A DNA stretch of 32,000 nt from Bellilinea caldifistulae. GTDB taxonomy: Bacteria; Chloroflexota; Anaerolineae; Anaerolineales; Anaerolineaceae. The position numbers and the translations under genes were made by a program. Within the stretch, counting starts at the first letter, position 1; each line of letters begins with the position of its first letter. The notes beneath the pieces were generated by a model, which worked only from the letters and a program-made list of their open reading frames with translations, had not been told where the DNA came from and searched no databases. Positions 2,514 to 23,133 of this stretch are shown in pieces. The stretch spans positions 8,508-40,507 of the forward strand of contig NZ_LGHJ01000005.1 in NCBI RefSeq assembly GCF_001306055.1, read 5' to 3'.

Positions 2514-3569
2514 TCAGGTTGTTTCTTCATGTGAATAAGGAATTTGAAATGACACTACAGTTCCACTGCCACCGATGCGAGAATCGATGTTGAAGTAGCC
2601 ACCCAGCATCTCAACCCGTTCTTTGATTAATTTCAAGCCCAAACCCTTGCCGGCCATTGCCTTGGAAGGATCAAAGCCCTTTCCATCATCTTTTACCTGC
2701 ACTTTAATCAATTGAGAATCCATGATGATCGAAACCTCTATCTTTAATTTTTGGGAGAGGTCGTTATTGTGCCGGGCGGCATTCCCGATGATTTCCTGAA
2801 GTGAACGGAATATCAAGACCTCAATATAGGGTTCCAGTCGCCTTTCGGCGCCCATTATATCGAGCTTAATATCAACGCCACTTTCATTTTGGAAGTTTTC
2901 CACATATCGCTTGAGAGTGGGAAACAACCCCAAATCATCCAGCATCATCGGTCTCAGATCCGTGATGAACAAACGGACTTTTTGGAAGGTGTTCAAGGCG
3001 GCGGCCTTTAGATTCTCCAATTCCTGTTTTGCGCGAGTAGGGTCAACATCAAACAAACGACTGACAATTTCCATTTGAACCACAAAGTTCGATAATGCCT
3101 GAGCCGGGCCATCGTGCATTTGTCTGGAGAGGCGCTGGCGTTCCGCCTCTTGAGCATCAATCAATTTCTGCAACAATACGGTTCCGCGTTCTTCCCCCGC
3201 TCCACCCATCTCCTCTTCTAAAAATCGGTTGGTTTTTTCAATTAAGTCCAATAATTCTTCAAGATATTGTTTTTTGGTTTGTAATTTTTCTAATTGACTC
3301 CTTTTTTGAACCATTTGATTGAGGGATTCAATGGTTTCCTCATAAGTTCTGACAATATCCTGCCTTGGCAAACTGTCAATTTGAGCTTTAACAAAGTTCA
3401 ATTGGGTAATTTTTTGCTTGTTAAGTTCGTTCAGCTTGGCGATTTGTGAATTTTGTAAATTGATCAAAGTATCATTGTCATCCAGATCTTTTGTGAATTG
3501 AGCCTTTTTTTCCCTTAAAAAGGTAAGATATTCTTCCCGTGTATCCTCATTCTTCAGATGATTGCTCAT
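2514..3569 (-). CDS. Soluble sensor histidine kinase, HisKA_3 (DegS/NarX-like) type with N-terminal coiled coil
   Basis: 351 aa with no hydrophobic segments. About 130 aa of heptad-rich, Q/E/K/L-rich N-terminus. H-box 'ERQRLSRQMHDGPAQAL'. HATPase motifs 'GNAARHN', 'DDGKGF' and 'GLGLKLIKERVEMLGG'. Confidence 0.8.
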   Translation of the reverse strand: MSNHLKNEDTREEYLTFLREKKAQFTKDLDDNDTLINLQNSQIAKLNELNKQKITQLNFVKAQIDSLPRQDIVRTYEETIESLNQMVQKRSQLEKLQTKKQYLEELLDLIEKTNRFLEEEMGGAGEERGTVLLQKLIDAQEAERQRLSRQMHDGPAQALSNFVVQMEIVSRLFDVDPTRAKQELENLKAAALNTFQKVRLFITDLRPMMLDDLGLFPTLKRYVENFQNESGVDIKLDIMGAERRLEPYIEVLIFRSLQEIIGNAARHNNDLSQKLKIEVSIIMDSQLIKVQVKDDGKGFDPSKAMAGKGLGLKLIKERVEMLGGYFNIDSRIGGSGTVVSFQIPYSHEETT

Positions 3570-3635
3570 GGAGGCCCTCTCTTTTGTACAACTTGAAAAT
3601 CATGCCAAGTATAGCACAACCTGTTGTTGCTGTTC

Positions 3636-5288
3636 TTATTTTTTAAACCAGGAAATCTCCCCCCACCCCCATTCCGCCTCCGGAAGCAACAAGAAGAAGT
3701 GAACTCCCTCGTGAGTCTCCAGCAAACGCACCCCACTCATATCGTGAGGGTTTGCGTACAGATTGGACAGGTTTTCCTGATTTTCTTCCAGAAGCAAGTA
3801 GGTCGCTCCGTATCTTTTCGCGGCTGCAAGGGCGTGACGGATATCCCCATCAGGGATGACAATACTGGGTCTTCTGGTAGCCCAATAAAAACCCGGCGGA
3901 TTATTGACCATTGCAATAAATTGTTTGGAAATGTGGAGGTCATCAAGCCTTTCCCCAACTCTCTGATACCGCTCGATACTTTCATTCCACACAAGATGAT
4001 TGGGGACTCTATATACGCGCTGGTAAAAAAACCATCCTGCAATGAATAGATTGATCAAGATTAAAAAGGTGCCAAACAACGTCATTGAAGTAGACATACC
4101 CCAACCGCGCGCCTTTTTCATCCAGATAATAAGCTGCTCCAGGCCAGCAACCGACATGCTCCAAAAGAATATCTGAATAGCTGCTCCCGAATGCAAAAAC
4201 CCCCCACGTGAACCAGCAAACGGAAACACAATAGTCATCATTCCCAATATCAACAACCACATCATGGTTTCAAATTTTACTGCCGAATGATGTCTTTTGC
4301 TCCAGCACCCCACCAGGATAAGTGGTACCAGGATGATTGAACCCTGAACAACAAGAAAGTTCTGCAAATTCAAGCTGAGTGCATCCAGCCTTGCGTGGAT
4401 AATGGCCGGCAATCCGGCTTTAAGCCAGTTTGTAAAGGTCAGGTGATCATTCGGATAAGCAAAAAGCTGGTTGTAGCTTGTCAGCCAAAGACTTTTTCCG
4501 TTGCCGGGTGGAAACATACTCCCAAAAACAACCCAATTTCGATAGTACCAACCCCCTGTCAGAATCAAATAACCGAGTAAAAGAGCCAACAACCCGTTTA
4601 TGGCTACGCGCATTTTTTGGCGGGATTGCCATGGCCGGATTCTCCAAATGACAACCCCAAAAGCGGAAATCAACCAAATCAAACCATCCGCCCTGGTCAA
4701 ATGCATCCAACCGGCTATAAAACCCAGCAGTAAAAATCTTTGAAAACTCTCTAATCCTCCAATCCACTGATTGTTTGCAAAAAATGCAATAATGACAAAT
4801 AACCCTCCCCCTATCATATAAGGTATAAAGGTTTCAGGAATGGTCAGATAAAGGGCATAAACCCCCGGAAAAACTGCAAGGCCGCCGGCTATCCAGGCAT
4901 AGGCGGGATTTGTTATCACTTTCCTGGTAAGATAAACGGTTAGTACCGGCAAAAATCCAGCCATCAAGAGAAACGGTAATTTTGCCCACACAAAATCTGG
5001 AGAACGACCAAGCCACATGCCCATAAACGCAAGCAGCGACGGTAGAGGCATCCAGTAAACAAATGCCGGAGCAGGCAATCCTTTTGGATTAGCGAGGTAA
5101 TTCCAAATATATGGTTCTACAAAGCCATTTCCTTCAAAGAGTTGCAGACCTCCCACCGTGTAATATGCTGAATCCATATATCCCGGTCCCTTTTGAAATT
5201 GTGTTCCAATCAGGGCAAAGATTATTCCACTCAGGTACCAAAACCAATTTGATTGGGGGATTTTTCTTGCCATCTCCCATCCTTTCAT
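3636..5288 (-). CDS. Polytopic membrane protein, putative GT-C-fold glycosyltransferase with C-terminal extracytoplasmic domain
   Basis: 550 aa with more than 10 hydrophobic helices. First-loop acidic motif 'GYMDSAYYTVGGLQL', followed by about 130 aa of soluble C-terminus. The ATG at 5288 overlaps the stop of the upstream gene (ATGA). Confidence 0.5.
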   Translation of the reverse strand: MKGWEMARKIPQSNWFWYLSGIIFALIGTQFQKGPGYMDSAYYTVGGLQLFEGNGFVEPYIWNYLANPKGLPAPAFVYWMPLPSLLAFMGMWLGRSPDFVWAKLPFLLMAGFLPVLTVYLTRKVITNPAYAWIAGGLAVFPGVYALYLTIPETFIPYMIGGGLFVIIAFFANNQWIGGLESFQRFLLLGFIAGWMHLTRADGLIWLISAFGVVIWRIRPWQSRQKMRVAINGLLALLLGYLILTGGWYYRNWVVFGSMFPPGNGKSLWLTSYNQLFAYPNDHLTFTNWLKAGLPAIIHARLDALSLNLQNFLVVQGSIILVPLILVGCWSKRHHSAVKFETMMWLLILGMMTIVFPFAGSRGGFLHSGAAIQIFFWSMSVAGLEQLIIWMKKARGWGMSTSMTLFGTFLILINLFIAGWFFYQRVYRVPNHLVWNESIERYQRVGERLDDLHISKQFIAMVNNPPGFYWATRRPSIVIPDGDIRHALAAAKRYGATYLLLEENQENLSNLYANPHDMSGVRLLETHEGVHFFLLLPEAEWGWGEISWFKK

Positions 5289-6760
5289 GGCCGATTCCCG
5301 AATTCGTAAATATCTAAATCACCGATTTGTGTGTGACTTAATTGTATGTATTGGCTGGAAAGAGCCTCAAGAACCGGATGCTTAAAGCCCCTCTCTGAAA
5401 ATTCCTGAACGGCTTTCCTGAAAACGACAAAGAAGAATCGTTCTTTTTCCCGAATTATTCGGGAGTAATCTTCTATCGGGTAAATCCCCATCGCTTGTTG
5501 GGAAACCAGCGCCAGTGTATCGTTGGGAGAGCCGGGTTCATCTGCGAGAAAAGCCGCATCGTGATTTTCATCATAAAAGCGCATCGGGAAGTAGCTGAGT
5601 TTATTGTCATGCAAAATGAACACATCCCGGTTTTGGGGTAAATTGAGATATTCCACAGCCTGACGGAAAGGCGAGCGAGGAAATTCAGCATAGGTATAAA
5701 AAGAAGGTAAAGATATTGCAGCTGTCACAAGAAAACCCCCTAAAAGAAATGCTCCTATTCCTCGTTTCCATCTCAAGACAATGATCCTTGCCGCTACAAT
5801 GGAATACATAACACTGGAGAGAATGAAAACCCTTGTAACAAAAACCGGCTGCATGAAGTAGGAAATCACAAATAACAGAATGGGTAATCCGAACAGAATC
5901 AGGTTTAACAGCATTATGGCTGACCTGTCACTCCGATCTTTCCACAATTCCCAGAGTACAACAAAAAACAGCTGTGCGCTGAAAACGGCTGCTATTGGCA
6001 ACAATGCACCTTTCAAGGGTAGATTGGCATGAAATAATATAACAGCCTGAAAAATCTCCACAATCCCAGGCCTGGGGGTCCAGAAAGCTCTCTGAACTTT
6101 GGCAATTTGACCAGGCAACAAGAAAGCCCATGGTAAATAAAACAATCCAATAACCAGCTGAGCTTTAATTATTTGTATCTGGTCCTCCCATCTTTTTTTC
6201 CAAAGAAGATAGACGTTTCCCCAAATTAAACCGAACCCCGCTAAGGCATGGCTATACATCGCCACGACACCGCTCAAGACTAACCCAACCCAAAAACCCG
6301 CCTTATCCTGTTTTTCTTCAAATATTCGGTAAAAAAACCAGTAATAACCTAGCTGCCCCGCCAGCATTAAAGCGTACATCCGTAAATCCTGGCTGTGATA
6401 AATTTGCAGCGGCGATATCGCCAGCAATATACCGGCGGTGATACCAGTGCGCCACCCAAACATCCGCCGGGCAAGGTCAACCGCGATAAACCAGCCGATT
6501 ATGGACAAGCCAACACTGAACAACCTCAAGAAAACCAGATTATCATTCAATCCCTGCCAAAAATGAAGCAAAAAATAATACAAAGGCGGCATCGTGTCTG
6601 CTGCCGTTCCTTTGATAATATTCCCCAAATCCTGACGGGCAAGGAAAATACTGAAGGCATCATCATACTGGATTTCACGGCTTCTGATCCCCGTCAGCCG
6701 TAATCCAACGGCTAGCAGTAGAGCAAGTGTCAAGTAAGACCGCTCACTTCCTTTCGACAT
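5285..6760 (-). CDS. GT-C glycosyltransferase, family 39/PMT_2 (ArnT-like)
   Basis: 491 aa. 'IQYDDAFSIFLA' followed by 'MPPLYYFLLHFW', the DE/DD plus PPLYY signature I associate with PMT_2/ArnT-like proteins. Many TM helices and a soluble C-terminal domain. Confidence 0.7.
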   Translation of the reverse strand: MSKGSERSYLTLALLLAVGLRLTGIRSREIQYDDAFSIFLARQDLGNIIKGTAADTMPPLYYFLLHFWQGLNDNLVFLRLFSVGLSIIGWFIAVDLARRMFGWRTGITAGILLAISPLQIYHSQDLRMYALMLAGQLGYYWFFYRIFEEKQDKAGFWVGLVLSGVVAMYSHALAGFGLIWGNVYLLWKKRWEDQIQIIKAQLVIGLFYLPWAFLLPGQIAKVQRAFWTPRPGIVEIFQAVILFHANLPLKGALLPIAAVFSAQLFFVVLWELWKDRSDRSAIMLLNLILFGLPILLFVISYFMQPVFVTRVFILSSVMYSIVAARIIVLRWKRGIGAFLLGGFLVTAAISLPSFYTYAEFPRSPFRQAVEYLNLPQNRDVFILHDNKLSYFPMRFYDENHDAAFLADEPGSPNDTLALVSQQAMGIYPIEDYSRIIREKERFFFVVFRKAVQEFSERGFKHPVLEALSSQYIQLSHTQIGDLDIYEFGNRP

Positions 6761-6762
6761 AT

Positions 6763-8013
6763 CTACGAAGATGCCCTGGATTCGAGCGTTTCAAACCACA
6801 ATCGCGGTGGTCTAACAGCCCACCAGCGATTCCAATACAGGACGAGGATCAAAAACAGGGGTAATGGCAGGAACATCACCGGGCTTTGAATGGGTTGGTA
6901 ATCCATCTCTACTGTGGTTAGAAAAATCTCCCAGATTCCGACAAAAAGTAAAAACATGGTAGCCACGGAAAGAACTACTCCCCGATTCCGCCAACGCTCA
7001 ACCCAAACAGCGAAAGTTAAAACAACCCCCGGATAAGCCACGATGAAATTACCAGGATCGGTTTGCAACCCGACCCAAAAGCTGACAGTTATAGTGAGAC
7101 ACGCGGTCCACAAAAAAGCTCGAAATTCACTCTTTCGATTGATGAACCATTCCACCATCAAAATCAACACCACCATCCCGGAAACCACTCGGCCAAGGCG
7201 CTCACCTCCCTGTGGGATAATTGCCCCTAATGCAGCCGGCAAAGTACCCGGAGGATTATAAGATGGATAGCGTAGAACTTCCCGTAAGTTTTGGATGATC
7301 CAATCCGGGATCAAAATTAACGCCAAACCAATTAGGAAGCCCATACCAATCAAAAACCAGATGATAATTTTCCAGCGGCGATGGCTGGCCGCCCAAAATA
7401 ACACAAACACAATCAACAACAAAACAACCTGCGGTTTGATGGTGATTAAAGCCATGAGAATCCCGGCCAGCTCATCATTACCGGCGCGGACGGCAAGTAA
7501 TATCCCCACTATGGCGAGGGCGATTAAAATGACCACATTCCCCAGAATCACTGGTCTTAAGGCATGATACCAGAAGACCGAAAACAATAAAAACAAGGCC
7601 AGAATGAGCGGTTTTGGCCGCCATCGTACCAACCCTAAAGACAAAAACGCCATAAGGATCAAACCGGATTCCAAAACCGCCATCCAAACCGCACGGGCAA
7701 GGTTGTAATCTGCTATCAGCGCAAACGGCAAAAAGACGAGAATCGAATAGAGAGGATAAGCAACCCGCAATTCATGTTCACCCGCCCTGGCTGGCCGGCC
7801 ATACACCATATTTTGAATGCGAAGTGCCACCTCATCAGAATACGGGCTCAACCCATCTTCAAAAAAGGATTTCGTTCCCATCCAGTGAACTAAAAAATCA
7901 TTGCCCCCTGGATTTTGAGCCGTATAACGATAATTCCCCCACACCAACAGACCAAACAAACCACTTCCGAGCACAAAAAGCACTATAATTGCCAATGAGG
8001 AATTTCGTGACAT
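6763..8013 (-). CDS. Polytopic membrane glycosyltransferase, GT87/DUF2029-like
   Basis: 416 aa, almost entirely TM helices. First loop 'GGNDFLVHWMGTKSFFEDGLSPYS' resembles the D-x-x-x-Y loop of PimE-type GT87 proteins. Ends 2 nt before the start of the next gene. Confidence 0.55.
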   Translation of the reverse strand: MSRNSSLAIIVLFVLGSGLFGLLVWGNYRYTAQNPGGNDFLVHWMGTKSFFEDGLSPYSDEVALRIQNMVYGRPARAGEHELRVAYPLYSILVFLPFALIADYNLARAVWMAVLESGLILMAFLSLGLVRWRPKPLILALFLLFSVFWYHALRPVILGNVVILIALAIVGILLAVRAGNDELAGILMALITIKPQVVLLLIVFVLFWAASHRRWKIIIWFLIGMGFLIGLALILIPDWIIQNLREVLRYPSYNPPGTLPAALGAIIPQGGERLGRVVSGMVVLILMVEWFINRKSEFRAFLWTACLTITVSFWVGLQTDPGNFIVAYPGVVLTFAVWVERWRNRGVVLSVATMFLLFVGIWEIFLTTVEMDYQPIQSPVMFLPLPLFLILVLYWNRWWAVRPPRLWFETLESRASS

Positions 8014-8056
8014 CGAGAACGCTTCTCCTTAAAGTACCGACCAACCCCTAATCAAT

Positions 8057-8062
8057 TATAAT
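8057..8062 (+). promoter_or_regulatory. Candidate -10 box (TATAAT) for the amidase gene; would give a leaderless or near-leaderless mRNA
   Basis: A perfect TATAAT lies 10 nt upstream of the ATG at 8073. No purine-rich SD lies between them ('attcagcccagt'). The -35 region is poor. Confidence 0.25.
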
Positions 8063-8072
8063 TCAGCCCAGT

Positions 8073-8876
8073 ATGAAGACAAAAATTTCACTTGCCCAAT
8101 TTGAAGTTCAAATTGGAAAGCCTGAGCAAAATTTTAAAACAGCACTGCCCTATATTGAACAGGCTGCCCGCTCAGGCTCTTCAATCATTTTACTGCCCGA
8201 ATTATGGAGCAGTGGTTACGATTTACAAAACGGTTCAACATATACCCAAATTAATCAGGAAATTATTGGCGAGTTAAAGTCACTTTCCGAACAATATCAT
8301 CTTTCTATTGGGGGGTCTTATATCACTTGCGACGAAGTGGGCTGCCGCAACACTTTCTTGATCACCTTGCCGGATAAAAGTGTCACTCCTCCTTATCACA
8401 AAGTCCATTTATTCCGTCTACTAGATGAAGATCAGTTTTTTCAGCCGGGTGACCAATATCTCTCCGTTGATTTTAACTGGGCTAAAGCCGGTTTGGCCAT
8501 CTGTTATGATCTTCGTTTTCCGGAATTGTTCCGTTTTTATTCAAGGCAAGGTGCATCTTGTGTTTTGATCGTTGCCCAATGGGGTGCCAAACGTGCCGAA
8601 CACTGGCGCACATTTCTCAAAGCCAGAGCCATCGAAAATCAATTGTTTGTGGCGGGTGTCAATGCAATTGGAATGATTGGAAATACCCCACTGGCCGGGT
8701 ACAGTGCAGTCGTATCTCCGTGGGGAGATGTACTGGCAGAAGGGTCTTCCAATCAAGAAGAATTAATCACCGTAGAAATGAACTTTGATTTAATTGATGA
8801 GGTAAAACAACACTTGAATTCAGGACAGGATCGCCGTGATGATTTGTATAAGGAATGGTATAACCGGTTTCCTTAA
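8073..8876 (+). CDS. Carbon-nitrogen hydrolase (nitrilase superfamily), YafV/omega-amidase-like
   Basis: 267 aa. E-K-C catalytic triad contexts 'ILLPELWSSGY', 'HKVHLF' and 'LAICYDLRFPE'. No TM segments. Confidence 0.85.
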   Translation: MKTKISLAQFEVQIGKPEQNFKTALPYIEQAARSGSSIILLPELWSSGYDLQNGSTYTQINQEIIGELKSLSEQYHLSIGGSYITCDEVGCRNTFLITLPDKSVTPPYHKVHLFRLLDEDQFFQPGDQYLSVDFNWAKAGLAICYDLRFPELFRFYSRQGASCVLIVAQWGAKRAEHWRTFLKARAIENQLFVAGVNAIGMIGNTPLAGYSAVVSPWGDVLAEGSSNQEELITVEMNFDLIDEVKQHLNSGQDRRDDLYKEWYNRFP

Positions 8877-10393
8877 TCCGACTGGTCCCCCTCTCGTGCA
8901 ACGACAATACTGACCTCATCCTCGTAGAGTACTCTCCAACCCTTTTTGATTAATTTCTCTACTACGGGTTGTTGGGGCTCAATCAAAAACCAGCCGATTT
9001 TCCATTTTTCTACGGCTTCTTCCCACCCCTCACCGGTGTTGAGAATGTTCAGCCAATCCTTCAGAATTTCATCGCCAAATAGGTCGGTTCTCCCGTCAAC
9101 AAAGACCGGTGTTTCAGGCATATTCCAGATCAAATAACCTCCCCAACCGTAACTATTCCATAATCTGCCGTCCGGAATTCCCTTCTCTTTCAAATACGCT
9201 ACGGCTTTTTGAGGATAGAACCGAGCCTCATAGGCACTAACCACCACTGGATGAGTCACATAAAACCATTTTCCAATGGCAACCATTCCCAGTAATCCGA
9301 TTATCGTCATATTGATGACCCGGCGAAAGTTGAATGGAAAAACAACCTGGTTTCGACTCATCCGATTACCATGTTGATTAAAGAAATTTTTCAAATTTTT
9401 TGTAATATCAACGAAGATCTCAGGCAAATGATTACCAACGGTCAGGGTAGCAAAAATCGCAAACGGTGCAAAATTGCGTTTTGCAACCAGGGCTAAATAA
9501 GTAAATCCCAAAAAGCCGACAATTTCAAAACCACTGACCGTCTTTTTTGAATATGCGAATGAAAAGATAACAATAAAAAGTAAAACAAGAAATGGCTGCA
9601 TTGCCAGTTGATGAAAATCAGGTGACGCCCACTCATCAATCAAGGATTGCAAGGTTTGCACCCCTACGGTCTTAAAAGGAACAATCAGGGTATTTAAACC
9701 ATTCGGATTGATTAAGACACCTGACAAAGCCACCAGTATCCAAATGAAATATTTTTTCAGCCTCCCAAATCGCTTCCCTTCATTCGAGGGTATCAAGAGA
9801 GAATCCAGGATCTCGCCCGCCAGCAGAAAAAGTAGAAGAAAAATTCCCAAACCATATCCACCGTGAAGATTGGACCAAAGAACAAACAAAGTAAAAAACC
9901 ATATCGTACCCTGAAAACCGCCATGCTTCCGATATGTTCGAATCAGCCCCAATAAAATTACGAACATCAATAACGAAAATATTTGCGGGCGTGGTGACCA
10001 GACGAAAGAACAGATGATCGCAGCCAAAATCACAAACCACGCTTTAAATAAGGCTCCGCCCTCCATGATTTTATATAATATTCCCATACTGGCTACCGCT
10101 GTAATCGCTACACATAAACCCAACCCCCAAAAACCGGCATTTTCAAAAAACCAATAAAGAACAACCTCACCCAGCCAAGAATGATTAATCCAGTTCTCCC
10201 CTGCCCGGGTATAAGAAAACACATCCTTTAGCAGTGGACTTCCGTTCTGAATTGTCCATTGACCTGCCCTGAGATGCCACCACATGTCGCTGTCCAGCGG
10301 CACACGCACAGCCATGATAAACACCAGCAACAGGGTAATGCAAAACAGCAAATTATCGAGGTTTTTTTGATCTTTTTCCAAAAGGTTGATCAT
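8873..10393 (-). CDS. Polytopic membrane protein, putative GT-C-like glycosyltransferase (unassigned family)
   Basis: 506 aa. First loop 'PLDSDMWWHLRAGQWTIQNGSPLLKDVFSYT' (DxD-type). About 12 TM helices. C-terminal soluble domain 'YGWGGYLIWNMPETPVFVDGRTDLFGDE'. The start overlaps the upstream stop (ATGA at 10390-10393). Confidence 0.4.
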   Translation of the reverse strand: MINLLEKDQKNLDNLLFCITLLLVFIMAVRVPLDSDMWWHLRAGQWTIQNGSPLLKDVFSYTRAGENWINHSWLGEVVLYWFFENAGFWGLGLCVAITAVASMGILYKIMEGGALFKAWFVILAAIICSFVWSPRPQIFSLLMFVILLGLIRTYRKHGGFQGTIWFFTLFVLWSNLHGGYGLGIFLLLFLLAGEILDSLLIPSNEGKRFGRLKKYFIWILVALSGVLINPNGLNTLIVPFKTVGVQTLQSLIDEWASPDFHQLAMQPFLVLLFIVIFSFAYSKKTVSGFEIVGFLGFTYLALVAKRNFAPFAIFATLTVGNHLPEIFVDITKNLKNFFNQHGNRMSRNQVVFPFNFRRVINMTIIGLLGMVAIGKWFYVTHPVVVSAYEARFYPQKAVAYLKEKGIPDGRLWNSYGWGGYLIWNMPETPVFVDGRTDLFGDEILKDWLNILNTGEGWEEAVEKWKIGWFLIEPQQPVVEKLIKKGWRVLYEDEVSIVVAREGDQSD

Positions 10394-12075
10394 TGCGCGC
10401 TATCAGTTTGAATAAATAATTTTTCGAAATCAACTATCCGTATAGGATTTGACAGGTTGTAATAAATGACAAAGTCACCAATCTGTTTCTCGTTCCATAA
10501 AATTTTTCTCTCTTGGAGCAAACTACGCAGTTTTTGATCCAGGGCAGGATTTCGAGTGGTTATCAAAGCCACCTTGTCCGATTCCTCAACCATTTGTGTA
10601 TAGAGCGGGTAACGATCATCGCGCCGCGTATATCTTAAATCTGGATGATACGGGAATCGGGGACTGAAAATGATCTCTTCGTGTGTAAGAAACGCCAGCG
10701 GATAAGCAACCCAGTAGTTCGTATAACCCCTCAATTCGCCATTTTCCCGCAGATATTGAATTACTTCCGGCATATCTCCCATATCCACCCGTGCAGGGGC
10801 GTAAAATTGGGTTGTCAAACCCGGTGGATTGGATGCTGTACATTGCAAATTTCCCCACAGGTTGAAAAGTGCAATCAACCCGGCCAGACTTAAATATGCA
10901 GGCTTCTTTTTACCCCATTCATCCAGAACTTTTCCCCCCATCAGACTTAATACCAGCCAAACGGGTAAAAAATATCTTCCACTTGGGTCAACACCAAACG
11001 AAGTAAACACAAAACCGAGAATGAAAGTAAAGATAACCCCTTCAATCACTTTGACTTGAAACGAACGAGGCGATCTGATCCAATCCCAAAAAATTTTCCC
11101 CCATAAAAGTAATGTGAATGGGATCAATGGCAATCCCAGCCAGAAAACATCCCACGGAGGACGCAACCCGATTGCAGCAGGCAAACCCAACACTACAAAG
11201 TAGACCATATGATTAATCGTTCTTAACCAAAAAGGCTCACGCTCCACTGCCACAGCCGCACCGAATAATTCGTGAATCAGTGAGCCTAAGCCATTTTGAA
11301 ATGCAAAAAACCACCAGGGAAATGAGCCCACCAGTAATCCCACCAAAACCAGGGTTATCCTCCAGGTAATGATTCTTAAGTTTTTAATCCGGAAGGTACG
11401 AAGTAAAATTCCGATACCTGCCGGAACACTGTAAACCATAGTCAACCCATTCACCCATAATCCAAACCCACACAAAAAACCCCATAACAACCACAAAATA
11501 ACGGAGTGGCTCCCTAGTCTAAATGTACGCATTCCTGATGCACGATTAACTTCTGTATCGGCTTCACCACCGCTTTTACTAACTCGAAAACTGATTTCTG
11601 AACTTGCTTCTGAATATTTCAACAAGTAAAATGTTGTTATCAAAATTAAATTCCCGATCAGCAAGGCTTCGCCATATCCCCCTAAACTGACCGTAGTATA
11701 TAGCGTCGTATTGACCGGCGGTATTGCCAGTAATAAGGTAGCGATCAAACCGGCACGGAACGATCCAAAAAATTGATAACCGACCCAAAAACCTGTCAAT
11801 ATCGTTAAAAGATATAAAATTACCTGAACAAGCCTGATTCCAAAAACCGATTGACCAAAAGCCTTAAAAAAAAATGCTACAAGGAAGGCATCTAAACTGC
11901 CCATGTAGGCCTGTCCGTAGAAAAAGATGGGCTTTTCCCCCGCCAATATGTGGCGAGCCATTAACCCCACCACTGCTTCATCTGCATTGAAGGGAAAAAC
12001 ATTTAAAACAAGCAGGGAAACTTTCAGAGATAGCCCCAGTAAAATCACGAAGGCCAAAAGCAGGTATCGCTTCAT
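10390..12075 (-). CDS. GT-C glycosyltransferase, family 39/ArnT-like
   Basis: 561 aa. 'FPFNADEAVVGLMARHILAGEKPIFFYGQAYMGSL' first-loop motif, multiple TM helices, and a soluble C-terminal domain of about 150 aa. Confidence 0.65.
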   Translation of the reverse strand: MKRYLLLAFVILLGLSLKVSLLVLNVFPFNADEAVVGLMARHILAGEKPIFFYGQAYMGSLDAFLVAFFFKAFGQSVFGIRLVQVILYLLTILTGFWVGYQFFGSFRAGLIATLLLAIPPVNTTLYTTVSLGGYGEALLIGNLILITTFYLLKYSEASSEISFRVSKSGGEADTEVNRASGMRTFRLGSHSVILWLLWGFLCGFGLWVNGLTMVYSVPAGIGILLRTFRIKNLRIITWRITLVLVGLLVGSFPWWFFAFQNGLGSLIHELFGAAVAVEREPFWLRTINHMVYFVVLGLPAAIGLRPPWDVFWLGLPLIPFTLLLWGKIFWDWIRSPRSFQVKVIEGVIFTFILGFVFTSFGVDPSGRYFLPVWLVLSLMGGKVLDEWGKKKPAYLSLAGLIALFNLWGNLQCTASNPPGLTTQFYAPARVDMGDMPEVIQYLRENGELRGYTNYWVAYPLAFLTHEEIIFSPRFPYHPDLRYTRRDDRYPLYTQMVEESDKVALITTRNPALDQKLRSLLQERKILWNEKQIGDFVIYYNLSNPIRIVDFEKLFIQTDSAQ

Positions 12076-12175
12076 AGTTGAATGGTAGTAAAACCTTTTT
12101 GCTTGAAAATACAGTAATATTATTGTATTCAGGATTGGAATTCACTACCAAACAATTTTATCGGGGCATTACCCA

Positions 12176-13462
12176 ATGATTCAAAACCTGAAGAAAAAAG
12201 CCTTTCTTTTTGTTGTTATTTTTCTTTTCAGCCTTTTATATTTTATTGGAATTCGTGAAGTTCCCTTTCACCCAGATGAAAGCACCCAAATTTTCATGAG
12301 CCGGGATGTTGATTTTTTCTTCTCCCAACCTTCCTACCTTTCCTATAATCCAAACAATTCTGAAGATTTGCGTCAGCGATACCGATTGCTTGATCCACCT
12401 GTCAGCCGCTGGTTTATCGGCATGTTCGGCTTGATTTTTAAGGTCCCCCCGTTACCGGCCGATTGGGATTGGGGAAAATCGTGGGAAGAAAACGTACAAT
12501 CGGGTGCTTTGCCTCCCCCATCCACCCTTTTGATTTCTCGATTAGCAGTCAGTTTCGTCTTTCCGTTGCTTCTTTACTTTGCTTATAAAACGGGCGAAGT
12601 GCTGGCCGATAAGAAAACTGCCTGGCTTAACCTTGTTTTTACAGCCTTGAATGCCTTAATCCTGCTCCATACTCGCCGGGCAATGGCAGAAAGTCTTTTA
12701 GCCTTTTTTTCTTGCCTTTCTCTTTATCTTCTGGTTTCAGGGAAAAAGCCCGTTTGGCTGCTGGCAGTTCCAATCGCATTGGCATTTAATGCCAAATACT
12801 CAACCGCTCCACTGGTTTTGGCTGGATGGATTAATTGCCTGATGAGTTCTTCAAATTCGCCTTTCCACCATCGTTTGAAACCGGTGCTGCTTTATTCAAT
12901 TATTTTTATCCTGACTACATTTTTACTCAATCCGGTTTTATGGTCATCCCCACTGGATGCTTTGAAAGCTGCCGCCAAAGAAAGACAAAATTTATTAGCC
13001 GCTCAAACGACTGCAATTGGAGGTTTCAATCCCTCTCAAACACCCCAAACCGTTCCAGAACGTTTATTGGCACTAATCGCCCAGATTTATATCGCCCCAC
13101 CAGCGGTTGCTGATGTTGGAAACTATCTTTCTGCTACAGAACTCCCCGCCCAAATTTACTTCTCCCGCCCATGGAATAATCTAACCAATGGATTTTTCAA
13201 GGGAGGCTTCTTTCTTTCCCTGACCATCATTGGCCTGTTCTGGATGATCCGCCGGCATTGGAGTTCAATATGGAAATTTTCAAATCCGGCCACTCTTTTT
13301 CTGCTGACTTTTATCGTTCAATTCGCTGGAATTATCGGTGGAATTCCACTCGCTTTTCAGAGGTACTATCTACCCCTTATGCCTTACATCACCTTCTTCA
13401 TTGGATACGCCATAAGCCAGGGGATTGATCTTGGTAAAAACACAATCAAACGTTCGATTTAA
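12176..13462 (+). CDS. Polytopic membrane protein, putative GT-C (PMT_2-like) glycosyltransferase
   Basis: 428 aa. 'VPFHPDESTQIFMSRD' acidic loop after TM1, and many TM helices. Divergent from the 10390-12075 gene. Confidence 0.45.
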   Translation: MIQNLKKKAFLFVVIFLFSLLYFIGIREVPFHPDESTQIFMSRDVDFFFSQPSYLSYNPNNSEDLRQRYRLLDPPVSRWFIGMFGLIFKVPPLPADWDWGKSWEENVQSGALPPPSTLLISRLAVSFVFPLLLYFAYKTGEVLADKKTAWLNLVFTALNALILLHTRRAMAESLLAFFSCLSLYLLVSGKKPVWLLAVPIALAFNAKYSTAPLVLAGWINCLMSSSNSPFHHRLKPVLLYSIIFILTTFLLNPVLWSSPLDALKAAAKERQNLLAAQTTAIGGFNPSQTPQTVPERLLALIAQIYIAPPAVADVGNYLSATELPAQIYFSRPWNNLTNGFFKGGFFLSLTIIGLFWMIRRHWSSIWKFSNPATLFLLTFIVQFAGIIGGIPLAFQRYYLPLMPYITFFIGYAISQGIDLGKNTIKRSI

Positions 13463-14816: not shown

Positions 14817-16871
14817 ATGCCCAATCGTTTAATCAAAGAAACCTCTCCATATCTTCTACAGCATGCCCACAACCCCGTGGACTGGTATCCATGGGGCGAT
14901 GAAGCCTTGCAAAAAGCAAAACTGGAAAATAAGCCCATTTTTCTCTCCATCGGTTATGCTGCGTGTCATTGGTGCCATGTAATGGAAGAAGAATCTTTCA
15001 AAGACCCTCGCACCGCCAGTTACCTCAATCAATACTTTGTGCCCATCAAAGTGGATCGAGAAGAACGCCCCGATTTGGACAATCTATATATGAGCGCGGT
15101 CATTTCAATGACGGGTCAAGGTGGCTGGCCGATGAGCGTTTTTTTGACGCCTGACCTTAAACCTTTCTATGGGGGAACCTACTTTCCGCCGGTTCCACGC
15201 TATGGAATGCCCTCTTTTTTGGAAGTTTTAGAAGGCATTCAGCAGGTTTGGCAAACCAATCGGCAAAACATCGAATCGGTTGCCGAAAAAGTTTCAGAAT
15301 ACCTTCAGGAAACCAATCAGTGGCGTACTGTTACCGCATCTCAAATCAACCCGGAGCTGTTGGATCAAGCCGCAACAAACTTGATTCGGCATTACGACCG
15401 TCAAAATGGGGGCTGGGGCCGTGCGCCTAAATTTCCACAGCCCATGGTGATTGAGTTTCTTCTACACCGTCATTTCAGGGGCCAACCCGAATCGCTGGAG
15501 ATTGCACGACACGCGCTCGATGTGATGCAAGGGGGTGGTCTATGGGATGTTGTTGGGGGTGGTTTTCACCGTTACAGCACCGATAGTCGCTGGCTGGTGC
15601 CCCACTTTGAAAAAATGCTTTATGATAACGCCCTGCTTGCCCAGACCTATCTTCATGCCTACCTGCTGACCGGTGACATTGAATATCGTTACACCTGCGA
15701 ACGGACTTTGGATTTCATTTTACGAGAAATGACCCATTCCTCAGGTGGTTTTTATTCAAGCCTGGATGCCGACTCGGAAGGCGAAGAAGGCAGGTATTAT
15801 CTTTGGAGCAAAACCGAAATTCTCACAGCCCTTCAAAATCTTCCGGAAAGAGAGATTTTTCTGGCGACTTACCCACTACCAGATGAGGGAAATTTTGAAG
15901 GCAAAATTATCTTACAGAGTCGCGCTCCTTTCAATATTCTTGCTGCCGACCAGGGCTTACCGGTGCAAGAATATCTGAAACAGCTGGATATTCCTATCCA
16001 GGCACTTCACAGAGCACGCAGTGAACGGATTCGTCCTCACACGGATGACAAAATCATTGTTTCTTGGAACGCTCTGGCATTGCGTGCCTTTGCCGAGGCC
16101 GGTCATTATTTACAACGGCAAGATTATTTACTGGCAGCCCAAAGAAATGCCGCGTTTATTCTTGAAAATTTGATAAGCGAAAACACTCTTTATCGCACAT
16201 GGCGGCAAGGTATTTCTCGAACCCCGGCGTTTTTGGAAGATTATGCGGGTTTGGCGGTTGCCTTGCTTACCTTATATCAATTCGATGACAATTCCCGGTG
16301 GTATTTTGAAGCGCAGAGACTTGTGGAGTGGGTGATTGGTCGGTTCAAAGACCCTGAGGGCGGATTTTTCGATGCTGCCCAACAATCCTCAAATATACCC
16401 CTCCTCCCTAAATATCCACAGGACAACCCCATTCCATCGGGAAACGCCTTGGCTGCTCACGCCTTGATGCTTCTCTGGGCATTGGATGAACGCAGTTCCT
16501 ATCAGGAAATCGCTCTTGAATTACTGGCAACTCTACAACAAACCGCCGCAGAATATCCAACCGCCTTTGCATATTGGCTGCAGATTCAGGATTTTGCCGC
16601 TGGCCCAATTCAACAAGTCGCGCTGGTATCTCCCTCCTCATCTTTCCAGCCCCATTTGCAATGGTTTAGTCCGGCGGTGACACCCTACCATCCGCGTCGT
16701 ATTCGGGTATATGCTTCTCTGCCGCTTTCCGAACACGCCCCAAAAATTTTTGAGGAAAAATCCACAATACAAAATCAACCTACGGCTTATATCTGTCAAA
16801 ACTTTTCCTGTAAACAGCCGTTGGTGGACTTTGAGCAATACGTTCGAACCATTTCGGAAGGGTTAGCATAA
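14817..16871 (+). CDS. Thioredoxin-domain protein of the YyaL/DUF255 (SSP411-like) family
   Basis: Highly characteristic N-terminus '[33 protein letters not shown]...[22 protein letters not shown]', followed by a long alpha/alpha-barrel-like region. I prefer the ATG at 14817 (AGGTG 6 nt upstream) to the track GTG at 14811. Confidence 0.85.
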
Positions 16872-17620
16872 AAGCTGAGCATGACTTGATTAAATAACCC
16901 GGGCTGATCAATAGGTAAGGCATGACCACCGCCCTCGATGATCACATGACCGCCGTTAGGTAACAATTCAACTAACCTTTTTTGCAAGTACAATGGTATG
17001 GTTGTATCCTTTGCTCCGCTAACAACCAGCACCGGGTTTGTGATCCTTTTGGCCAATTCCCGCCCATCAAACCGGGTTAATGCCAGCATGGCCTGGCGAT
17101 ACACCTTTGGATCAGCCTGTTTAATGCTTTGAGTAAGCATTTCCCGAAAAAGTCTTTTGTCATCGCTTGGGAAAATTCTACTGGCAACCAATTCAGCCTG
17201 AGCTTGTGGAGAAAGGAAAAACGCCCGCACCCCTCTGCGAACAAAATACCGAAACTCACTCCATCTGCGGGGACGTAACACAGCAAAAGTGTTGACCAGC
17301 ACCGACATCAGCACAAGATCAGGATATTCTGCTGCAAGTTTCAACCCGATAACTCCCCCCATTGAAATCCCCATTAATCCCATTTTTTTGATCCCCGCGG
17401 AACGCAGAATTTGGACCAACTCTTGGGTAACCCGATCAAAATTCCACTGATCACCCTCAAAAATGGATTTTCCAAAGCCCGGTAAATCCGGTGCAATTAC
17501 CCGATAACCAGCATCCAAAAGCGCAGGTATTTGAAAATACCATGACTCGGCATTTGCCCCCAAACCATGAAGCAGGAGAATTGGAAAACCATCCTGTCGG
17601 CCTTCACTTATAATATTCAT
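16796..17620 (-). CDS. Alpha/beta-fold hydrolase
   Basis: 274 aa. '[14 protein letters not shown]' oxyanion region and 'GISMGG' nucleophile elbow (GxSxG). The 3' end overlaps the convergent upstream gene by 76 nt. Confidence 0.85.
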
Positions 17621-17710
17621 AGAAGTTCTCCCTTTGAGGAAAATTTCACAATTTTGTTCATGAATTTTTCTTATAAGTTTATAATACTATCAACACCTCA
17701 GGAGGAACAA

Positions 17711-18991
17711 ATGGAAAAATTTATTATAGAAGGCGGACATCCTCTGCATGGAGAGGTAACCCCAGCAGGCAATAAAAATGCAGCACTTCCATTGCTGGCA
17801 GCCTGTTTATTAACCGATGAACCGGTAATCCTGAGAAACGTTCCAGATATTCTGGACGTTCGTACAATGCGAGCCTTACTCGAAAGTCTTGGTGTTGAAA
17901 TTAAACCACTGGATACCCACACATGGCAGGTTCAAGCCAAAGTCATCCGTCCTGCCGACCTGGATCCCGATTTGACTCGTAAAATTCGTGCTTCTATTCT
18001 TCTGGCAGGACCGATGACCGCCCGTATGGGTGAATTGCGGCTGCCTCCGCCGGGAGGAGATGTCATTGGCCGTCGAAGAGTGGATACCCATATCCTCGCA
18101 TTGACCAAACTTGGCGCCAGGGTAACTTACGACCGTTATTTTTACTTTTCTGCAAGCGGTTTAACCGGTGCGGATATTCTGCTGGACGAAGCCAGTGTAA
18201 CGGCAACTGAAAACGCAATTATGGCTTGTGTAACCGCCAGAGGTAAAAGCGTAATCCGTAATGCTGCTTCCGAACCACATATTCAGGAATTGTGCCACTT
18301 TTTGAATACCCTGGGTGCAAAAATTGAAAATATCGGCTCTAATACCTTACATATCACCGGGGTCGAGAAACTTCATGGGGGTGAATTTACTATTGGTCCA
18401 GATTACTTAGAGGTAGTCAGTTTCATTGGGGCTGCCGCGGTGACGAAAGGTGAAATTTGGATCCGCAACGCTGGTAATCAGTATCTGGATATGATACGTT
18501 TGGTATTTGGACGATTAGGAGTTCACTGGGAAACCCATGGAGATGATATTTTCGTCCCTTCAAAGCAGAAACTGGAGATTGAACCTGATCTGGGAAACGC
18601 AATTCCAGAAATCAGCGTGATGCCCTGGCCCTCTTTTCCAACCGATTTGATGAGCATCGCCCTTGTCGTCGCTACCCAATCAAAGGGGACAGTTCTCTTT
18701 CATGACTGGATGTACCCAAGTCGCATGTTTTTCACCGATAAGCTGGTGGGAATGGGTGCCCAAATCGTACTTTGTGACCCACACCGCTGCATCGTGCAAG
18801 GCCCCACGGAATTGTATGGTGAAAAAATGGAAAGTCCGGATATCCGCGCCGGAATGGCTCTGGTACTCGCCGCTCTTTCTGCCAAAGGCACTTCGGTGAT
18901 CCGTAACATTGGTCAAATTGACCGTGGTTACGAAAAAGTAGATCAGAAACTCGCAGCCCTTGGGGCCAAAATTCAGCGAGCGATCGAATAA
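17711..18991 (+). CDS. murA: UDP-N-acetylglucosamine 1-carboxyvinyltransferase (MurA), Asp-type active site
   Basis: 'MEKFIIEGGHPLHGEVTPAGNKNAALPLLAA' is a typical MurA N-terminus. Active-site loop is 'LPPPGGDVIGRRRVDTH'. The ATG at 17711 lies 5 nt after a GGAGG. The track start at 17567 overlaps the divergent hydrolase gene and was rejected. Confidence 0.9.
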   Translation: MEKFIIEGGHPLHGEVTPAGNKNAALPLLAACLLTDEPVILRNVPDILDVRTMRALLESLGVEIKPLDTHTWQVQAKVIRPADLDPDLTRKIRASILLAGPMTARMGELRLPPPGGDVIGRRRVDTHILALTKLGARVTYDRYFYFSASGLTGADILLDEASVTATENAIMACVTARGKSVIRNAASEPHIQELCHFLNTLGAKIENIGSNTLHITGVEKLHGGEFTIGPDYLEVVSFIGAAAVTKGEIWIRNAGNQYLDMIRLVFGRLGVHWETHGDDIFVPSKQKLEIEPDLGNAIPEISVMPWPSFPTDLMSIALVVATQSKGTVLFHDWMYPSRMFFTDKLVGMGAQIVLCDPHRCIVQGPTELYGEKMESPDIRAGMALVLAALSAKGTSVIRNIGQIDRGYEKVDQKLAALGAKIQRAIE

Positions 18992-21127: not shown

Positions 21128-21661
21128 TTATTTGTGAATAATCAATTGAAATTTTAACTTTCCCAACGCAATGACATCCCCATGCTTGACCGGATAATCA
21201 ACATGGGGCACAATTTTCTGTCCATTGACCCGGGTACCGTTAGCCGATCCCAAATCCATGATGGCTACCCGCTGCGATCCAATTTTGATTGCTGCGTGAA
21301 GTCGGGAAACCCCTTGCGTGTACGCTTCAAATTCAGATAAATCAACGTCCGGTAAAATGGGCTGCCCTTCGGCAATTCGCCCCAACGAAAACTCTGTCCT
21401 TCCGCTCAGGTGTATGGTTCTCCCCGAATCAATCATATGCAGAGATACAACCGGCTCCGATCCTTCGGCTACTGCTGTTTCAATTTTCACCTCTGGTATC
21501 GGCGCGCTGGAAAAAACTGCGCTTCCATTCAAAATATCCGAATTGACTTTTTCGAGATTTTGAGTGGTCAGCGTATCAACAGAAGTTAACTGGGCTCCAC
21601 ATTCACTACAAAACAAAGCACCCGGCAACTCCTGGTGCTGACAATTAGGGCATCGAATCAT
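21128..21661 (-). CDS. Zinc-ribbon plus FHA domain protein
   Basis: N-terminal 'CPNCQHQELPGALFCSECG' (CxxC-N12-CxxC). C-terminal FHA signature 'FSLGR...GVSRLHAAI...DLGSANGTRVNG'. The ATG overlaps the upstream stop (ATGA at 21658-21661). Confidence 0.85.
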   Translation of the reverse strand: MIRCPNCQHQELPGALFCSECGAQLTSVDTLTTQNLEKVNSDILNGSAVFSSAPIPEVKIETAVAEGSEPVVSLHMIDSGRTIHLSGRTEFSLGRIAEGQPILPDVDLSEFEAYTQGVSRLHAAIKIGSQRVAIMDLGSANGTRVNGQKIVPHVDYPVKHGDVIALGKLKFQLIIHK

Positions 21662-23133
21662 GACTCCCTCCTTGCCGGACTGGGCAATAAAAACAACGCT
21701 CGTGTGCCATACTTAATCTTCTTATCCCCTTCTTTACTGAATGAATGGGTTCTCTGAATATGATCCGCCTCAACAAGAACCGTTTTCGCCAGTTCACGAT
21801 CTCCCTGTGCAAGCAAATGCGTCGCCAAATGCTGCAAATGGCGCGTTGCTTTCCCAATATCTCCTGCCAATACTTCCAGCCGGGCCTTTTCCTGCAACCG
21901 ATAGAGGGTAATCTTTGACATTGCTTGAAGGATGGAAGTAGGGGGTTTCTCCGTCTGCCAATTCTCTCTGGTCTGTCGGGTAAGATGGATCGGATAACGG
22001 CCAAACGGATTCGCCAGGGATGGAACCTGCATTTGAATATGCCCTCTTAATAATTCAACCTCAATTTGGGTGCTGGAGAGAGGAGGTAGTTTGAATTCTA
22101 ATATGATACTGGTTTTTTTTCCATACTCAATTGTACCCAAAGGTATGGGCGATTCATTGCCAAGTGGCGTTATATCCGGATGAATGCGAAATACATAGCG
22201 GAGCTCGATACCTTCAGCCAAATTAAAAAACCATTCGATTTTTCTCGCGTAACTGACGGAAATTGATTTGATTTTATTTTCAATAAATTGGGTTAAGTCC
22301 TCATTACGGCTAACATAAATCGCATTTCCTCCGCTTAAAGCCGCAATCCGATCCAGGAAAATATCGTTCCATTCGTCCCCTATTCCCAGGGCATTGATGG
22401 GCACACCTTCCTCTCTGGCCTGAGCGGCCAGATCAATGCAATTTTGTTCATCTCCGTAGGTATGCCCATCCGTAATTAAAATCAGCTGTTTAATCATTCC
22501 TTCCCGGCTAAACCGTTGAATGAGGTCATAGCCGGTAGAAAGACCCTGGAAGATTTCTGTCGCCCCTCCAACCTGCAATTTACTGATCACACCATCCACT
22601 GCCGCCGGATCTTCCAGCTCTTTCGGGGGCAAAATCACCTCAGCCCGATCACTGAATGCCACGATGGACAACCGATCCTTTGTTCTCAACTTCCTTGCCA
22701 GGTAGATGATATTTTGCCGCACCATGTCAATACGATCACCTCGCATAGAGTTAGACCGATCTACAACCAGGCAAACATGAATGGGTGGCAGGTCTTTGGG
22801 ATCAGGTTGTTTGGGTGTGTCCAATTCCATCAGGACGTAAAAGAGTTGAGGCTCTTCCAACAATGGAATTTGTGACCGCCCGTAGGTGATCGAAATATTA
22901 ACCGCCGGCAATTCTTTTAACTCCGCCGGGAGTTGTTCATCATAGGCTGTGCGTTTTTTAGGATTAGAAAGTACCTCGTAGGCTTCCTGGATTTGTAAAA
23001 ACTTTTGTTTGGCAAATGGATCGGGATTAACATCCGGATGAAAACGTCGAGCAGCCTCGAAGTACGCCGTCCGGATTTCTTCCGCACTGGCATTGAAAGG
23101 CAATTCGAGGACTTGATAAAAAGTCGTTTTCAT
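21658..23133 (-). CDS. J-domain (DnaJ N-terminal) / von Willebrand factor A fusion protein
   Basis: J domain 'FYQVLELPFNASAEEIRTAYFEAARRFHPDVNPD...AYEVLSNPKKRTAYD' with an HPD tripeptide. vWA domain with a complete MIDAS ('VVDRSNSM', 'GGATEI', 'ILITDGHT'). About 200 aa of unassigned C-terminal region. Confidence 0.85.
   Translation of the reverse strand: MKTTFYQVLELPFNASAEEIRTAYFEAARRFHPDVNPDPFAKQKFLQIQEAYEVLSNPKKRTAYDEQLPAELKELPAVNISITYGRSQIPLLEEPQLFYVLMELDTPKQPDPKDLPPIHVCLVVDRSNSMRGDRIDMVRQNIIYLARKLRTKDRLSIVAFSDRAEVILPPKELEDPAAVDGVISKLQVGGATEIFQGLSTGYDLIQRFSREGMIKQLILITDGHTYGDEQNCIDLAAQAREEGVPINALGIGDEWNDIFLDRIAALSGGNAIYVSRNEDLTQFIENKIKSISVSYARKIEWFFNLAEGIELRYVFRIHPDITPLGNESPIPLGTIEYGKKTSIILEFKLPPLSSTQIEVELLRGHIQMQVPSLANPFGRYPIHLTRQTRENWQTEKPPTSILQAMSKITLYRLQEKARLEVLAGDIGKATRHLQHLATHLLAQGDRELAKTVLVEADHIQRTHSFSKEGDKKIKYGTRALFLLPSPARRES

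Follow-up and report, generated by a model that had tools for sequence, protein, structure and literature searches.

To our knowledge, all characterized glycosyltransferases of the GT-C superfamily use sugars carried by polyprenyl phosphate, at the outer face of the cytoplasmic membrane. Several of them are encoded together in the mycobacterial cell-wall cluster, which runs Rv3789 (a GtrA-family protein)-dprE1-dprE2-aftA-embC-embA-embB; PimE, a member of family GT87, is encoded elsewhere in that genome. The three-component systems of periplasmic glycosylation combine a GtrA flippase, a GtrB-type GT2 enzyme and a GT-C enzyme (Kelly et al. 2024, PMC11127046). Here we describe a locus of Bellilinea caldifistulae, a member of the Anaerolineae, that lies in a 32,000-nucleotide (nt) stretch of its genome, called the window below, and that holds six membrane-protein genes between positions 3636 and 13462. 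It is likely, in our judgment, that the six encode distinct GT-C glycosyltransferases, three of them PMT_2/ArnT-like, one GT87/PimE-like and two of families without a Pfam model, which would use polyprenyl-phosphate sugars as donors and act on a common glycan of the cell envelope.

The six genes are labelled G1, G2, G3, G5, G6 and G7, and a seventh gene, seen in relatives, is labelled G0x. Their positions in the window are as follows.

3636..5288, minus strand: G1, 550 aa, membrane protein with a predicted GT-C fold and a C-terminal alpha/beta domain of ~125 aa
5285..6760, minus strand: G2, 491 aa, PMT_2-type putative GT-C enzyme with a C-terminal domain of ~136 aa
6763..8013, minus strand: G3, 416 aa, GT87 (PimE-like) putative GT-C enzyme without a large soluble domain
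8873..10393, minus strand: G5, 506 aa, membrane protein with a predicted GT-C fold and a C-terminal domain of ~125 aa
10390..12075, minus strand: G6, 561 aa, PMT_2-like putative GT-C enzyme with a C-terminal domain of ~176 aa
12176..13462, plus strand: G7, 428 aa, ArnT/PMT-like putative GT-C enzyme, divergent from G6

These coordinates and strands agree throughout with the six open reading frames (ORFs) of 416-561 aa described in a first-pass annotation of this DNA, and the motifs quoted there ('YMDSAYY', 'QYDDAFS...PPLYY', 'GGNDFLVHW', 'LDSDMWWHL' and 'HPDESTQIF') can all be read in the translations. The six proteins are strongly hydrophobic along most of their length. Four sizeable soluble domains at the C-terminus had been claimed as well, and non-hydrophobic tails of 125-176 aa are indeed present in G1, G2, G5 and G6, with none in G3 and G7. 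The genes fall into a minus-strand unit of G6 and G5, a second minus-strand unit of G3, G2, G1 and a histidine kinase gene, and the divergent G7. The close junctions reported earlier, namely ATGA overlaps at G2/G1 and G6/G5 and a gap of 2 nt at G3/G2, were all read in the sequence. In the deposited annotation, G1 and G2 begin at later start codons, which gives proteins of 545 and 482 aa; with these starts G2 and G1 are 11 nt apart and do not overlap, and the packing is tight under either set of starts.

In its organization, the locus comes closest to the mycobacterial region. In both, several different GT-C genes stand side by side, with a GtrA-family protein and a sugar-modifying oxidoreductase encoded nearby. 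The GT87 member here is G3, and AftA, AftB, EmbA/B/C and PimE are found among the structural matches. However, Pfam gives no arabinosyltransferase match (Emb/Aft; GT53/GT85/GT89) for the six proteins, and the correspondence is at the level of the fold only. The nearby sugar gene here is a homologue of UXS (UDP-glucuronate decarboxylase/UDP-xylose synthase) instead of DprE1/E2, and no UbiA-type phosphoribosyltransferase was seen at this locus.

In its logic, the locus is closest to the three-component systems, in which the GT-C enzyme works with a lipid-phosphate sugar that has been synthesised in the cytoplasm and then flipped. Here, too, a GtrA-family gene and a sugar enzyme of the short-chain dehydrogenase/reductase (SDR) type are present nearby, and a suitable GT2 gene lies beside the cluster in a distant relative (locus L051). 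The differences are in number and distance: the locus has six to seven GT-C genes in place of one, the GtrA gene lies 11 kb off, and there is no GT2 gene within 10 kb. Furthermore, the substrate decorated by the three-component systems is an O antigen made beforehand; a cytoplasmic glycan pathway was not seen here.

In sequence, the closest relatives are ArnT/PMT_2 (GT83/GT39-like) and GT87. G2 matches PMT_2 above threshold, orthologues of G6 and G7 match PMT_2 or PMT, and an acidic pair (DE or DD) stands directly after the first transmembrane helix (TM1). The structural matches of G1 and G5 include ArnT, and a gene of the UDP-glucuronate decarboxylase type lies nearby, as the ArnA gene does for ArnT. 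No homologues of ArnB, ArnC or ArnD were seen at the locus, though, and the MIR domain of PMT is absent. A further contrast to ArnT is that these bacteria, which are regarded as monoderm, have no lipid A (PMC13319060). In Foldseek, G1 and G5 are matched best by the oligosaccharyltransferases STT3, PglB and AglB (GT66; E 1e-9 to 1e-8, template-modelling (TM) score 0.46-0.60), with which they share a polytopic N-terminal module followed by a C-terminal soluble domain. Unlike these enzymes, the proteins have no Pfam STT3 match, no WWDxG motif and no sequence similarity to them, and the C-terminal domain is only ~125 aa long. None of the six could be classed as an oligosaccharyltransferase, a PMT proper or an Emb/Aft enzyme, as the defining features of each are missing. 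What is new is a locus of several GT-C genes, as yet uncharacterized, which adds new families to the known GT-C superfamily.

Family and fold of the six proteins

The first-pass annotation had called all six proteins GT-C-type. The call stands for every one of them, with support that is uneven: it comes from Pfam for G2 and G3, from orthologues and database names for G6 and G7, and from the fold for G1 and G5. With gathering thresholds of 26.1 bits for Pfam PMT_2 (PF13231; ArnT/GT83-like) and 25 bits for GT87 (PF09594; PimE-like mannosyltransferases), G2 scores above the cut-off for PMT_2 (39 bits, E 1.2e-9) and G3 above that for GT87 (44.4 bits, E 2.3e-11, with the match spanning 3-234 of the 237 profile positions). 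By these curated thresholds, G2 is assigned to PMT_2 and G3 to GT87. None of the six proteins has a match in NCBIfam, and searches of PDB sequences, by profile or by single sequence, returned only chance-level matches for all six, including no sequence-level match between G3 and the solved PimE chain.

The placement of G6 and G7 as PMT_2/ArnT-like proteins is indirect and draws on converging evidence from orthologues, profile links and the names used by the source databases. Among the syntenic orthologues of G6, 22 of 33 match PMT_2 at E<=0.01, the best at 1.6e-9. In profile comparisons by hhalign, the G6 family aligns with G1 at a probability of 95% over 413 columns, the C-terminal domain included, and with G2 at 95.5%. 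For G7, 10 of 31 orthologues match PMT and 10 of 31 match PMT_2 at E<=0.01 (best 1.7e-7), and its homologues are named 'ArnT family glycosyltransferase', '4-amino-4-deoxy-L-arabinose transferase-like' or 'phospholipid carrier-dependent glycosyltransferase' by NCBI and JGI. The hhalign comparisons with the G7 alignment were discarded, since they gave one-column alignments with inflated scores, an artefact; the placement of G7 relies on the Pfam matches of its orthologues and on the names.

G1 and G5 are matched by no model in Pfam or NCBIfam and by no sequence in the PDB. For these two, alignments of 50 sequences were built, structures were modelled with AlphaFold2 (AF2), and the models were compared with the PDB by Foldseek. 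The model of G1 has a mean local confidence (pLDDT) of 93.8 and a predicted TM-score (pTM) of 0.93; the values for G5 are 91.9 and 0.91. All 24 PDB matches of G1 at E<=1e-3 are GT-C enzymes (best E 2e-9), among them AglB, STT3, PglB, ArnT, ALG12, ALG9, AftA, DPY19 and Pmt4. The same is true for all 23 matches of G5 at this level (best E 1.3e-8), which include STT3, DPY19, AglB, PglB, AftA and ArnT. The query-normalised TM-scores of these matches are in the range of 0.42-0.60. The models thus place G1 and G5 in the GT-C superfamily by their predicted fold alone. A transporter identity was also considered and was rejected; transporters and receptors appear in the Foldseek results only at E>0.01, with a probability of at most 0.35.

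G1, G5 and also G0x represent families for which there is no Pfam model. The family of G5 is a very large one: a search with its profile recovers 25,120 cluster representatives (clustered at 50% identity) at E<=1e-10, and 35,193 when the limit is E<=1e-3. The sampled members of the family carry no Pfam domain, and they are called 'hypothetical protein' wherever the sources name them, distant relatives included.

The fold also brings up a different reading of the locus. The six could be protein glycosyltransferases, either for PMT-like O-glycosylation or similar to oligosaccharyltransferases and DPY19, which modify secreted or envelope proteins, such as those of an S-layer or a sheath, each with its own set of substrates and without any polysaccharide. 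Structurally, G1 and G5 are closest to the protein-modifying enzymes AglB, STT3, PglB and DPY19, and G2, G6 and G7 match PMT/PMT_2 models, G6 and G7 mainly through their orthologues. However, the Foldseek scores of ArnT, AftA and the ALG enzymes are close to those of the oligosaccharyltransferases, and the fold is therefore no guide to the type of acceptor. Pfam finds no STT3 match, and it finds the MIR domain of the PMT enzymes in none of the six. The WWDxG motif of the oligosaccharyltransferases is also absent: G5 has an invariant 'YGWGGY'-type motif (Y-x-W-G-G-Y) without Asp, and G1 has nothing comparable. On account of the missing motifs, an oligosaccharyltransferase identity as such was rejected, and we regard the wider reading of protein glycosylation as unlikely.

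Conservation of the locus in the Anaerolineae

That the six sequences are too divergent to be recent tandem duplicates had been judged by eye in the first-pass annotation, and it is borne out by the comparison of all pairs, as no pair among the six reaches a BLASTP E-value below 0.1. Recent tandem duplication was ruled out on this ground. At the more sensitive level of profiles, G1, G2, G6 and G0x prove to be ancient paralogues (hhalign 73-95%).

Relatives of the locus were collected by a scan of one genome per species, and their neighbourhoods were mapped by tblastn. The scan found at least 560 stretches with a relative of G1, and the best 80 are all from Chloroflexota, mostly Anaerolineae. 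The conserved order of genes around them is GNAT, G7, G6, G5, (nitrilase), G3, G2, G1, G0x, histidine kinase, PFK, NUDIX, methyltransferase, URO-D, AAA, GtrA, UXS and a protein with a G5 domain. Two soluble proteins of this series are encoded next to or among the six genes in the window.

2514..3569, minus strand: HisKA_3 histidine kinase, soluble, with an N-terminal coiled coil (Pfam HisKA_3 and HATPase_c), 66 nt after G1
8073..8876, plus strand: carbon-nitrogen hydrolase of the nitrilase superfamily, soluble (Pfam CN_hydrolase, 9.7e-42), convergent with G5

Upstream of G1, the genes were counted in the 58 species-level genomes that have at least 9.5 kb of sequence on this side. G3 is found in all 58, G5 in 36, G6 in 34, G2 in 32 and G7 in 29. 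All six genes are present together in 24 of the 58, which makes a clustering by chance untenable. The carbon-nitrogen hydrolase stands at its position in 17 of the 58 relatives only, and it is probably not part of the system. On the downstream side of G1, 61 of 65 genomes have G0x and 64 of 65 have the kinase. G0x encodes a polytopic, GT-C-like protein of ~500 aa between G1 and the histidine kinase (L003:11590-13101; L001:11602-13104). NCBIfam links it weakly to the "LA_3751/LA_3752 putative glycosyltransferase" family (9e-11), and hhalign pairs its profile with that of G1 at 88%. G0x is cleanly absent from the window, where the 66 nt between G1 and the kinase span 3570-3635, and from the three closest relatives of the window, in which the kinase gene likewise comes directly after G1. 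The gene set is an ancient, class-wide syntenic block in the Anaerolineae, and ancestrally it held seven GT-C genes. These genes evolve faster than their housekeeping neighbours: compared with the window, the GT-C genes have a median identity of 40-47%, PFK one of 79% and UXS one of 83%.

The conservation of gene order can also be read in another way. The six could be functionally independent GT-C enzymes, for instance for decorations of lipids, of teichoic-acid-like polymers or of peptidoglycan, which have stayed together because this chromosome region is rarely rearranged. The unrelated housekeeping genes for PFK, NUDIX, the RsmD-like methyltransferase and URO-D keep their order over the same 20 kb, the unrelated nitrilase is interposed among the six, and the content of the cluster varies in distant relatives, with G2, G5, G6 and G7 each found in 29-36 of the 58 genomes. 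Two observations speak against independence. Start and stop codons overlap or are 2 nt apart within both minus-strand units, and in distant relatives extra GT-C genes and sugar-nucleotide genes gather at the locus, which is typical of a glycan locus and unlike neutral synteny. Six unconnected enzymes are, on balance, an improbable explanation, about as improbable as the protein glycosylation considered above.

The histidine kinase that follows G1, whose layout we take to be DegS-like, could possibly have a regulatory role. In distant relatives (L083:13022-13750; L054:13220-13939), a response regulator of the LuxR/NarL type is encoded immediately upstream of the kinase; none of this type is adjacent to the kinase in the window.

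Acidic residues, donor sugars and the predicted glycan

Each of the six proteins had been described as carrying an acidic motif in the first loop, at the place of the catalytic Asp/Glu of GT-C enzymes. The motif proved to be conserved in every family, with acidic residues after TM1 in 87-100% of the sequences. In G1, D39 ('GYMDSAYY') is invariant in 50 homologues, and D33 and D34 of G2 are acidic in 98% of 43 orthologues. For G3, 55 of 69 sequences have D and 5 have E at the position of D39 ('GGNDFLVHW'), and a subgroup has the acid one position earlier. D36 of G5 is invariant and D34 is conserved in 90-100%, depending on the alignment; the motif of this family is kept in relatives at 26-33% identity. 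D32 and E33 of G6 are 97% conserved, and in G7 the whole 'PFHPDE' is invariant, with D34 and E35 at 100%. There are further invariant acidic residues, D201 in G1 and D57 and E254 in G5.

As to the side of the membrane, the difference in charge across TM1 is a standard indicator of orientation. The N-terminal flank carries more positive charge than the C-terminal one in 100% of the orthologues of G1, G2, G3, G6 and G7 and in 78% of those of G5. From this difference the N-terminus is predicted to be inside and the acidic loop outside, as in the solved GT-C enzymes and as the first-pass annotation had assumed. That annotation had also asked whether the proteins belong to families other than glycosyltransferases, such as transporters, and whether the motifs are cytoplasmic or poorly conserved. 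The profile and structure searches, the conservation and the flank charges point the other way in each respect.

Some of the proteins, G1 and G5 above all, might instead be non-catalytic scaffold or substrate-binding subunits with a GT-C fold, like PIG-U in the glycosylphosphatidylinositol (GPI) transamidase; PIG-U (GPI transamidase chains 7wld_U and 9ub7_B) is among the weaker structural matches of G1, and no sequence-level link leads from G1 and G5 to characterized enzymes, but the invariant Asp at the junction of TM1 and loop 1, together with the other invariant acids (D39 and D201 in G1; D36, D57 and E254 in G5), gives a pattern like that of an active site, and in the G5 family these residues persist down to 26-33% identity, so that we find the idea very unlikely.

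The reading we favour, that of distinct GT-C enzymes at work on one envelope glycan, would proceed as follows. By analogy with the characterized members of the superfamily, the donor of each enzyme is most likely a polyprenyl-phosphate-linked sugar on the outer side of the cytoplasmic membrane, and the conserved Asp/Glu with which the first extracytoplasmic loop begins would serve the transfer of this sugar to the acceptor. The clustering of the genes suggests that the enzymes act on a common extracytoplasmic glycan of the envelope, which may be a wall polysaccharide, a lipoglycan or an envelope glycoprotein, and that each forms a different linkage. The product of the cluster is probably a cell-surface sugar polymer that has yet to be studied. 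The "assembly line" on a single glycan, as the first-pass annotation put it, is something we infer from the conserved clustering and the operon structure only.

The donors would be made elsewhere. The earlier claim that the window holds no genes for donor synthesis is correct for the window itself: in the ORFs scanned there is no GT2, flippase, Wzx/Wzy or ligase domain, and MurA (17567-18991), which belongs to peptidoglycan synthesis, is the sole nucleotide-sugar enzyme. The claim has to be qualified beyond the window, both at its left side and at the loci of distant relatives, and the absence of donor genes is partly a matter of where the window ends. At 2.4-3.4 kb to the left of window position 1 (L005:6387-7807) there are a UXS homologue of 319 aa (E 7.6e-107 to human UXS1) and a gene for a GtrA-family membrane protein of 154 aa (PF04138, 5.5e-24), the two overlapping by 4 nt. 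The GtrA gene is outside the window, 11 kb from G1. The UXS-GtrA pair is found in the same block in 29 of the 57 relatives with enough flanking sequence, and between genera the UXS homologues share 75-97% identity. A speculative candidate for a donor is a UDP-glucuronate-derived pentose of the UDP-xylose type, which the UXS homologue would make; the pentose might be loaded on polyprenyl phosphate by an unlinked GT2 enzyme and flipped by the nearby GtrA-family protein, a step that is equally speculative.

The loci of distant relatives are richer in sugar genes. At L051, the genes next to G3 (L051:845-5242) include a glucose-1-phosphate cytidylyltransferase (392.8 bits, above the cut-off), a gene similar to CDP-glucose-4,6-dehydratase, and a GT2 gene of 259 aa. 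The best matches of the latter are PpgS, AglJ, a Dol-P hexose transferase, DPMS (5mlz) and ArnC, all of which are polyprenyl- or dolichyl-phosphate sugar synthases. At L083, an SDR similar to UDP-4-keto-pentose/UDP-xylose synthases lies between G5 and G3, and at L054 two extra PMT_2 genes and a methyltransferase gene have joined the cluster. At several loci of relatives, a further polytopic protein of ~660 aa is encoded between G3 and G1. Such a gain of sugar genes in distant relatives is the behaviour of a locus for glycan biosynthesis, and it agrees with the use of lipid-phosphate sugars in the three-component systems (PMC11127046).

Other additional genes at the loci of distant Anaerolineales (L083:1345-2340 and 5590-6678; L063:728-1696; L051) include those for UXS-like SDRs, a PAP2 phosphatase and extra polytopic proteins.

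Several points weigh against a joint glycan pathway of six GT-C enzymes. The structure models cover G1 and G5 only of the six. G6 itself is below the PMT_2 cut-off (19.1 bits, E 0.0016), as is G7 (15.5 bits, E 0.021), which also has an E-value of only 0.28 for PMT (PF02366). The topology is deduced from the charge rule, and a cruder combination of hydropathy with K/R counts over all loops gave contradictory topologies. The full set of six is detectable in only 24 of the 58 genomes and is not an obligate unit; orthologues that have diverged may explain some of the misses. Synteny extends over the whole 20-kb neighbourhood, with PFK, NUDIX and the methyltransferase, so the conserved adjacency by itself is no proof of a shared pathway. 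Six unrelated genes separate the UXS-GtrA pair from the cluster, and no polyprenyl-phosphate-sugar synthase or GT2 gene is found in the source genome within 10 kb (the window and its 10-kb left flank). Full-text searches of the literature found no paper on GT-C enzymes or on this locus in Anaerolineae or Chloroflexota.

A bolder proposal, which we put forward tentatively and with rather low confidence, is that the cluster, with its seven ancestral GT-C genes, and the conserved UXS-GtrA pair form the core machinery for an undescribed envelope glycan of the whole class Anaerolineae, polymerised outside the membrane from polyprenyl-phosphate sugars, possibly pentoses derived from UDP-glucuronate. 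If this were true, the locus would be the Chloroflexota counterpart of the assembly of mycobacterial arabinogalactan or lipoarabinomannan, and it could explain a part of the layered envelope of these monoderm bacteria, which is free of lipopolysaccharide (LPS). G1 and G5 would then found new GT-C families, of which that of G5 by itself counts over 25,000 cluster representatives (50% identity).

Anaerolineae are abundant in anaerobic digesters and sediments. The Chloroflexota stain as Gram-negative and are without LPS and BAM genes, and the extra layers of their envelope are thought to be polysaccharide or protein (PMC13319060, bioRxiv 2025.08.19.671072). In recent papers the outer layers still figure as uncharacterised "polysaccharides or proteins". 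A conserved locus with six or seven transferases predicted to depend on lipid carriers offers a genetic handle on the envelope chemistry of the Anaerolineae. Since G1 and G5 are recognisable as GT-C proteins by structure only, assigning activities to them would extend the classification of glycosyltransferases well past this genome.

Other features of the window

Scans of the window for promoters gave 33 sites vs 25.6 ± 4.3 in shuffled sequence, and those for terminators gave 19 vs 17.1 ± 4.2; neither is above expectation. The best promoter-like site is at 8082-8055 on the minus strand, just upstream of G3. Scans of the window with Rfam and for tRNA genes came back empty.

A tightly packed operon for Ser/Thr signalling is found on the minus strand at 21128-25897. 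It encodes a protein with an FHA domain and a zinc ribbon, a DnaJ-VWA protein, a PP2C phosphatase, and a Ser/Thr kinase fused to a beta-propeller of the PQQ type. A second Ser/Thr kinase is encoded at 29775-30848.

The G+C content of the window is 45.2% overall, and the window and its housekeeping genes (PFK, MurA, GlnA) are in the range of 42-48%. The closest relatives, labelled 'Bellilinea sp.', have 43-46% G+C at this locus. The published value for B. caldifistulae GOMI-1, 52.18%, is above that of the window (PMC4574363).

Finally, the longest ORF of MurA (17567-18991, plus strand) overlaps by 54 nt with an ORF for an alpha/beta-hydrolase (16796-17620, minus strand). The Pfam match of MurA begins at residue 55, and its true start is probably an internal Met near residue 49.

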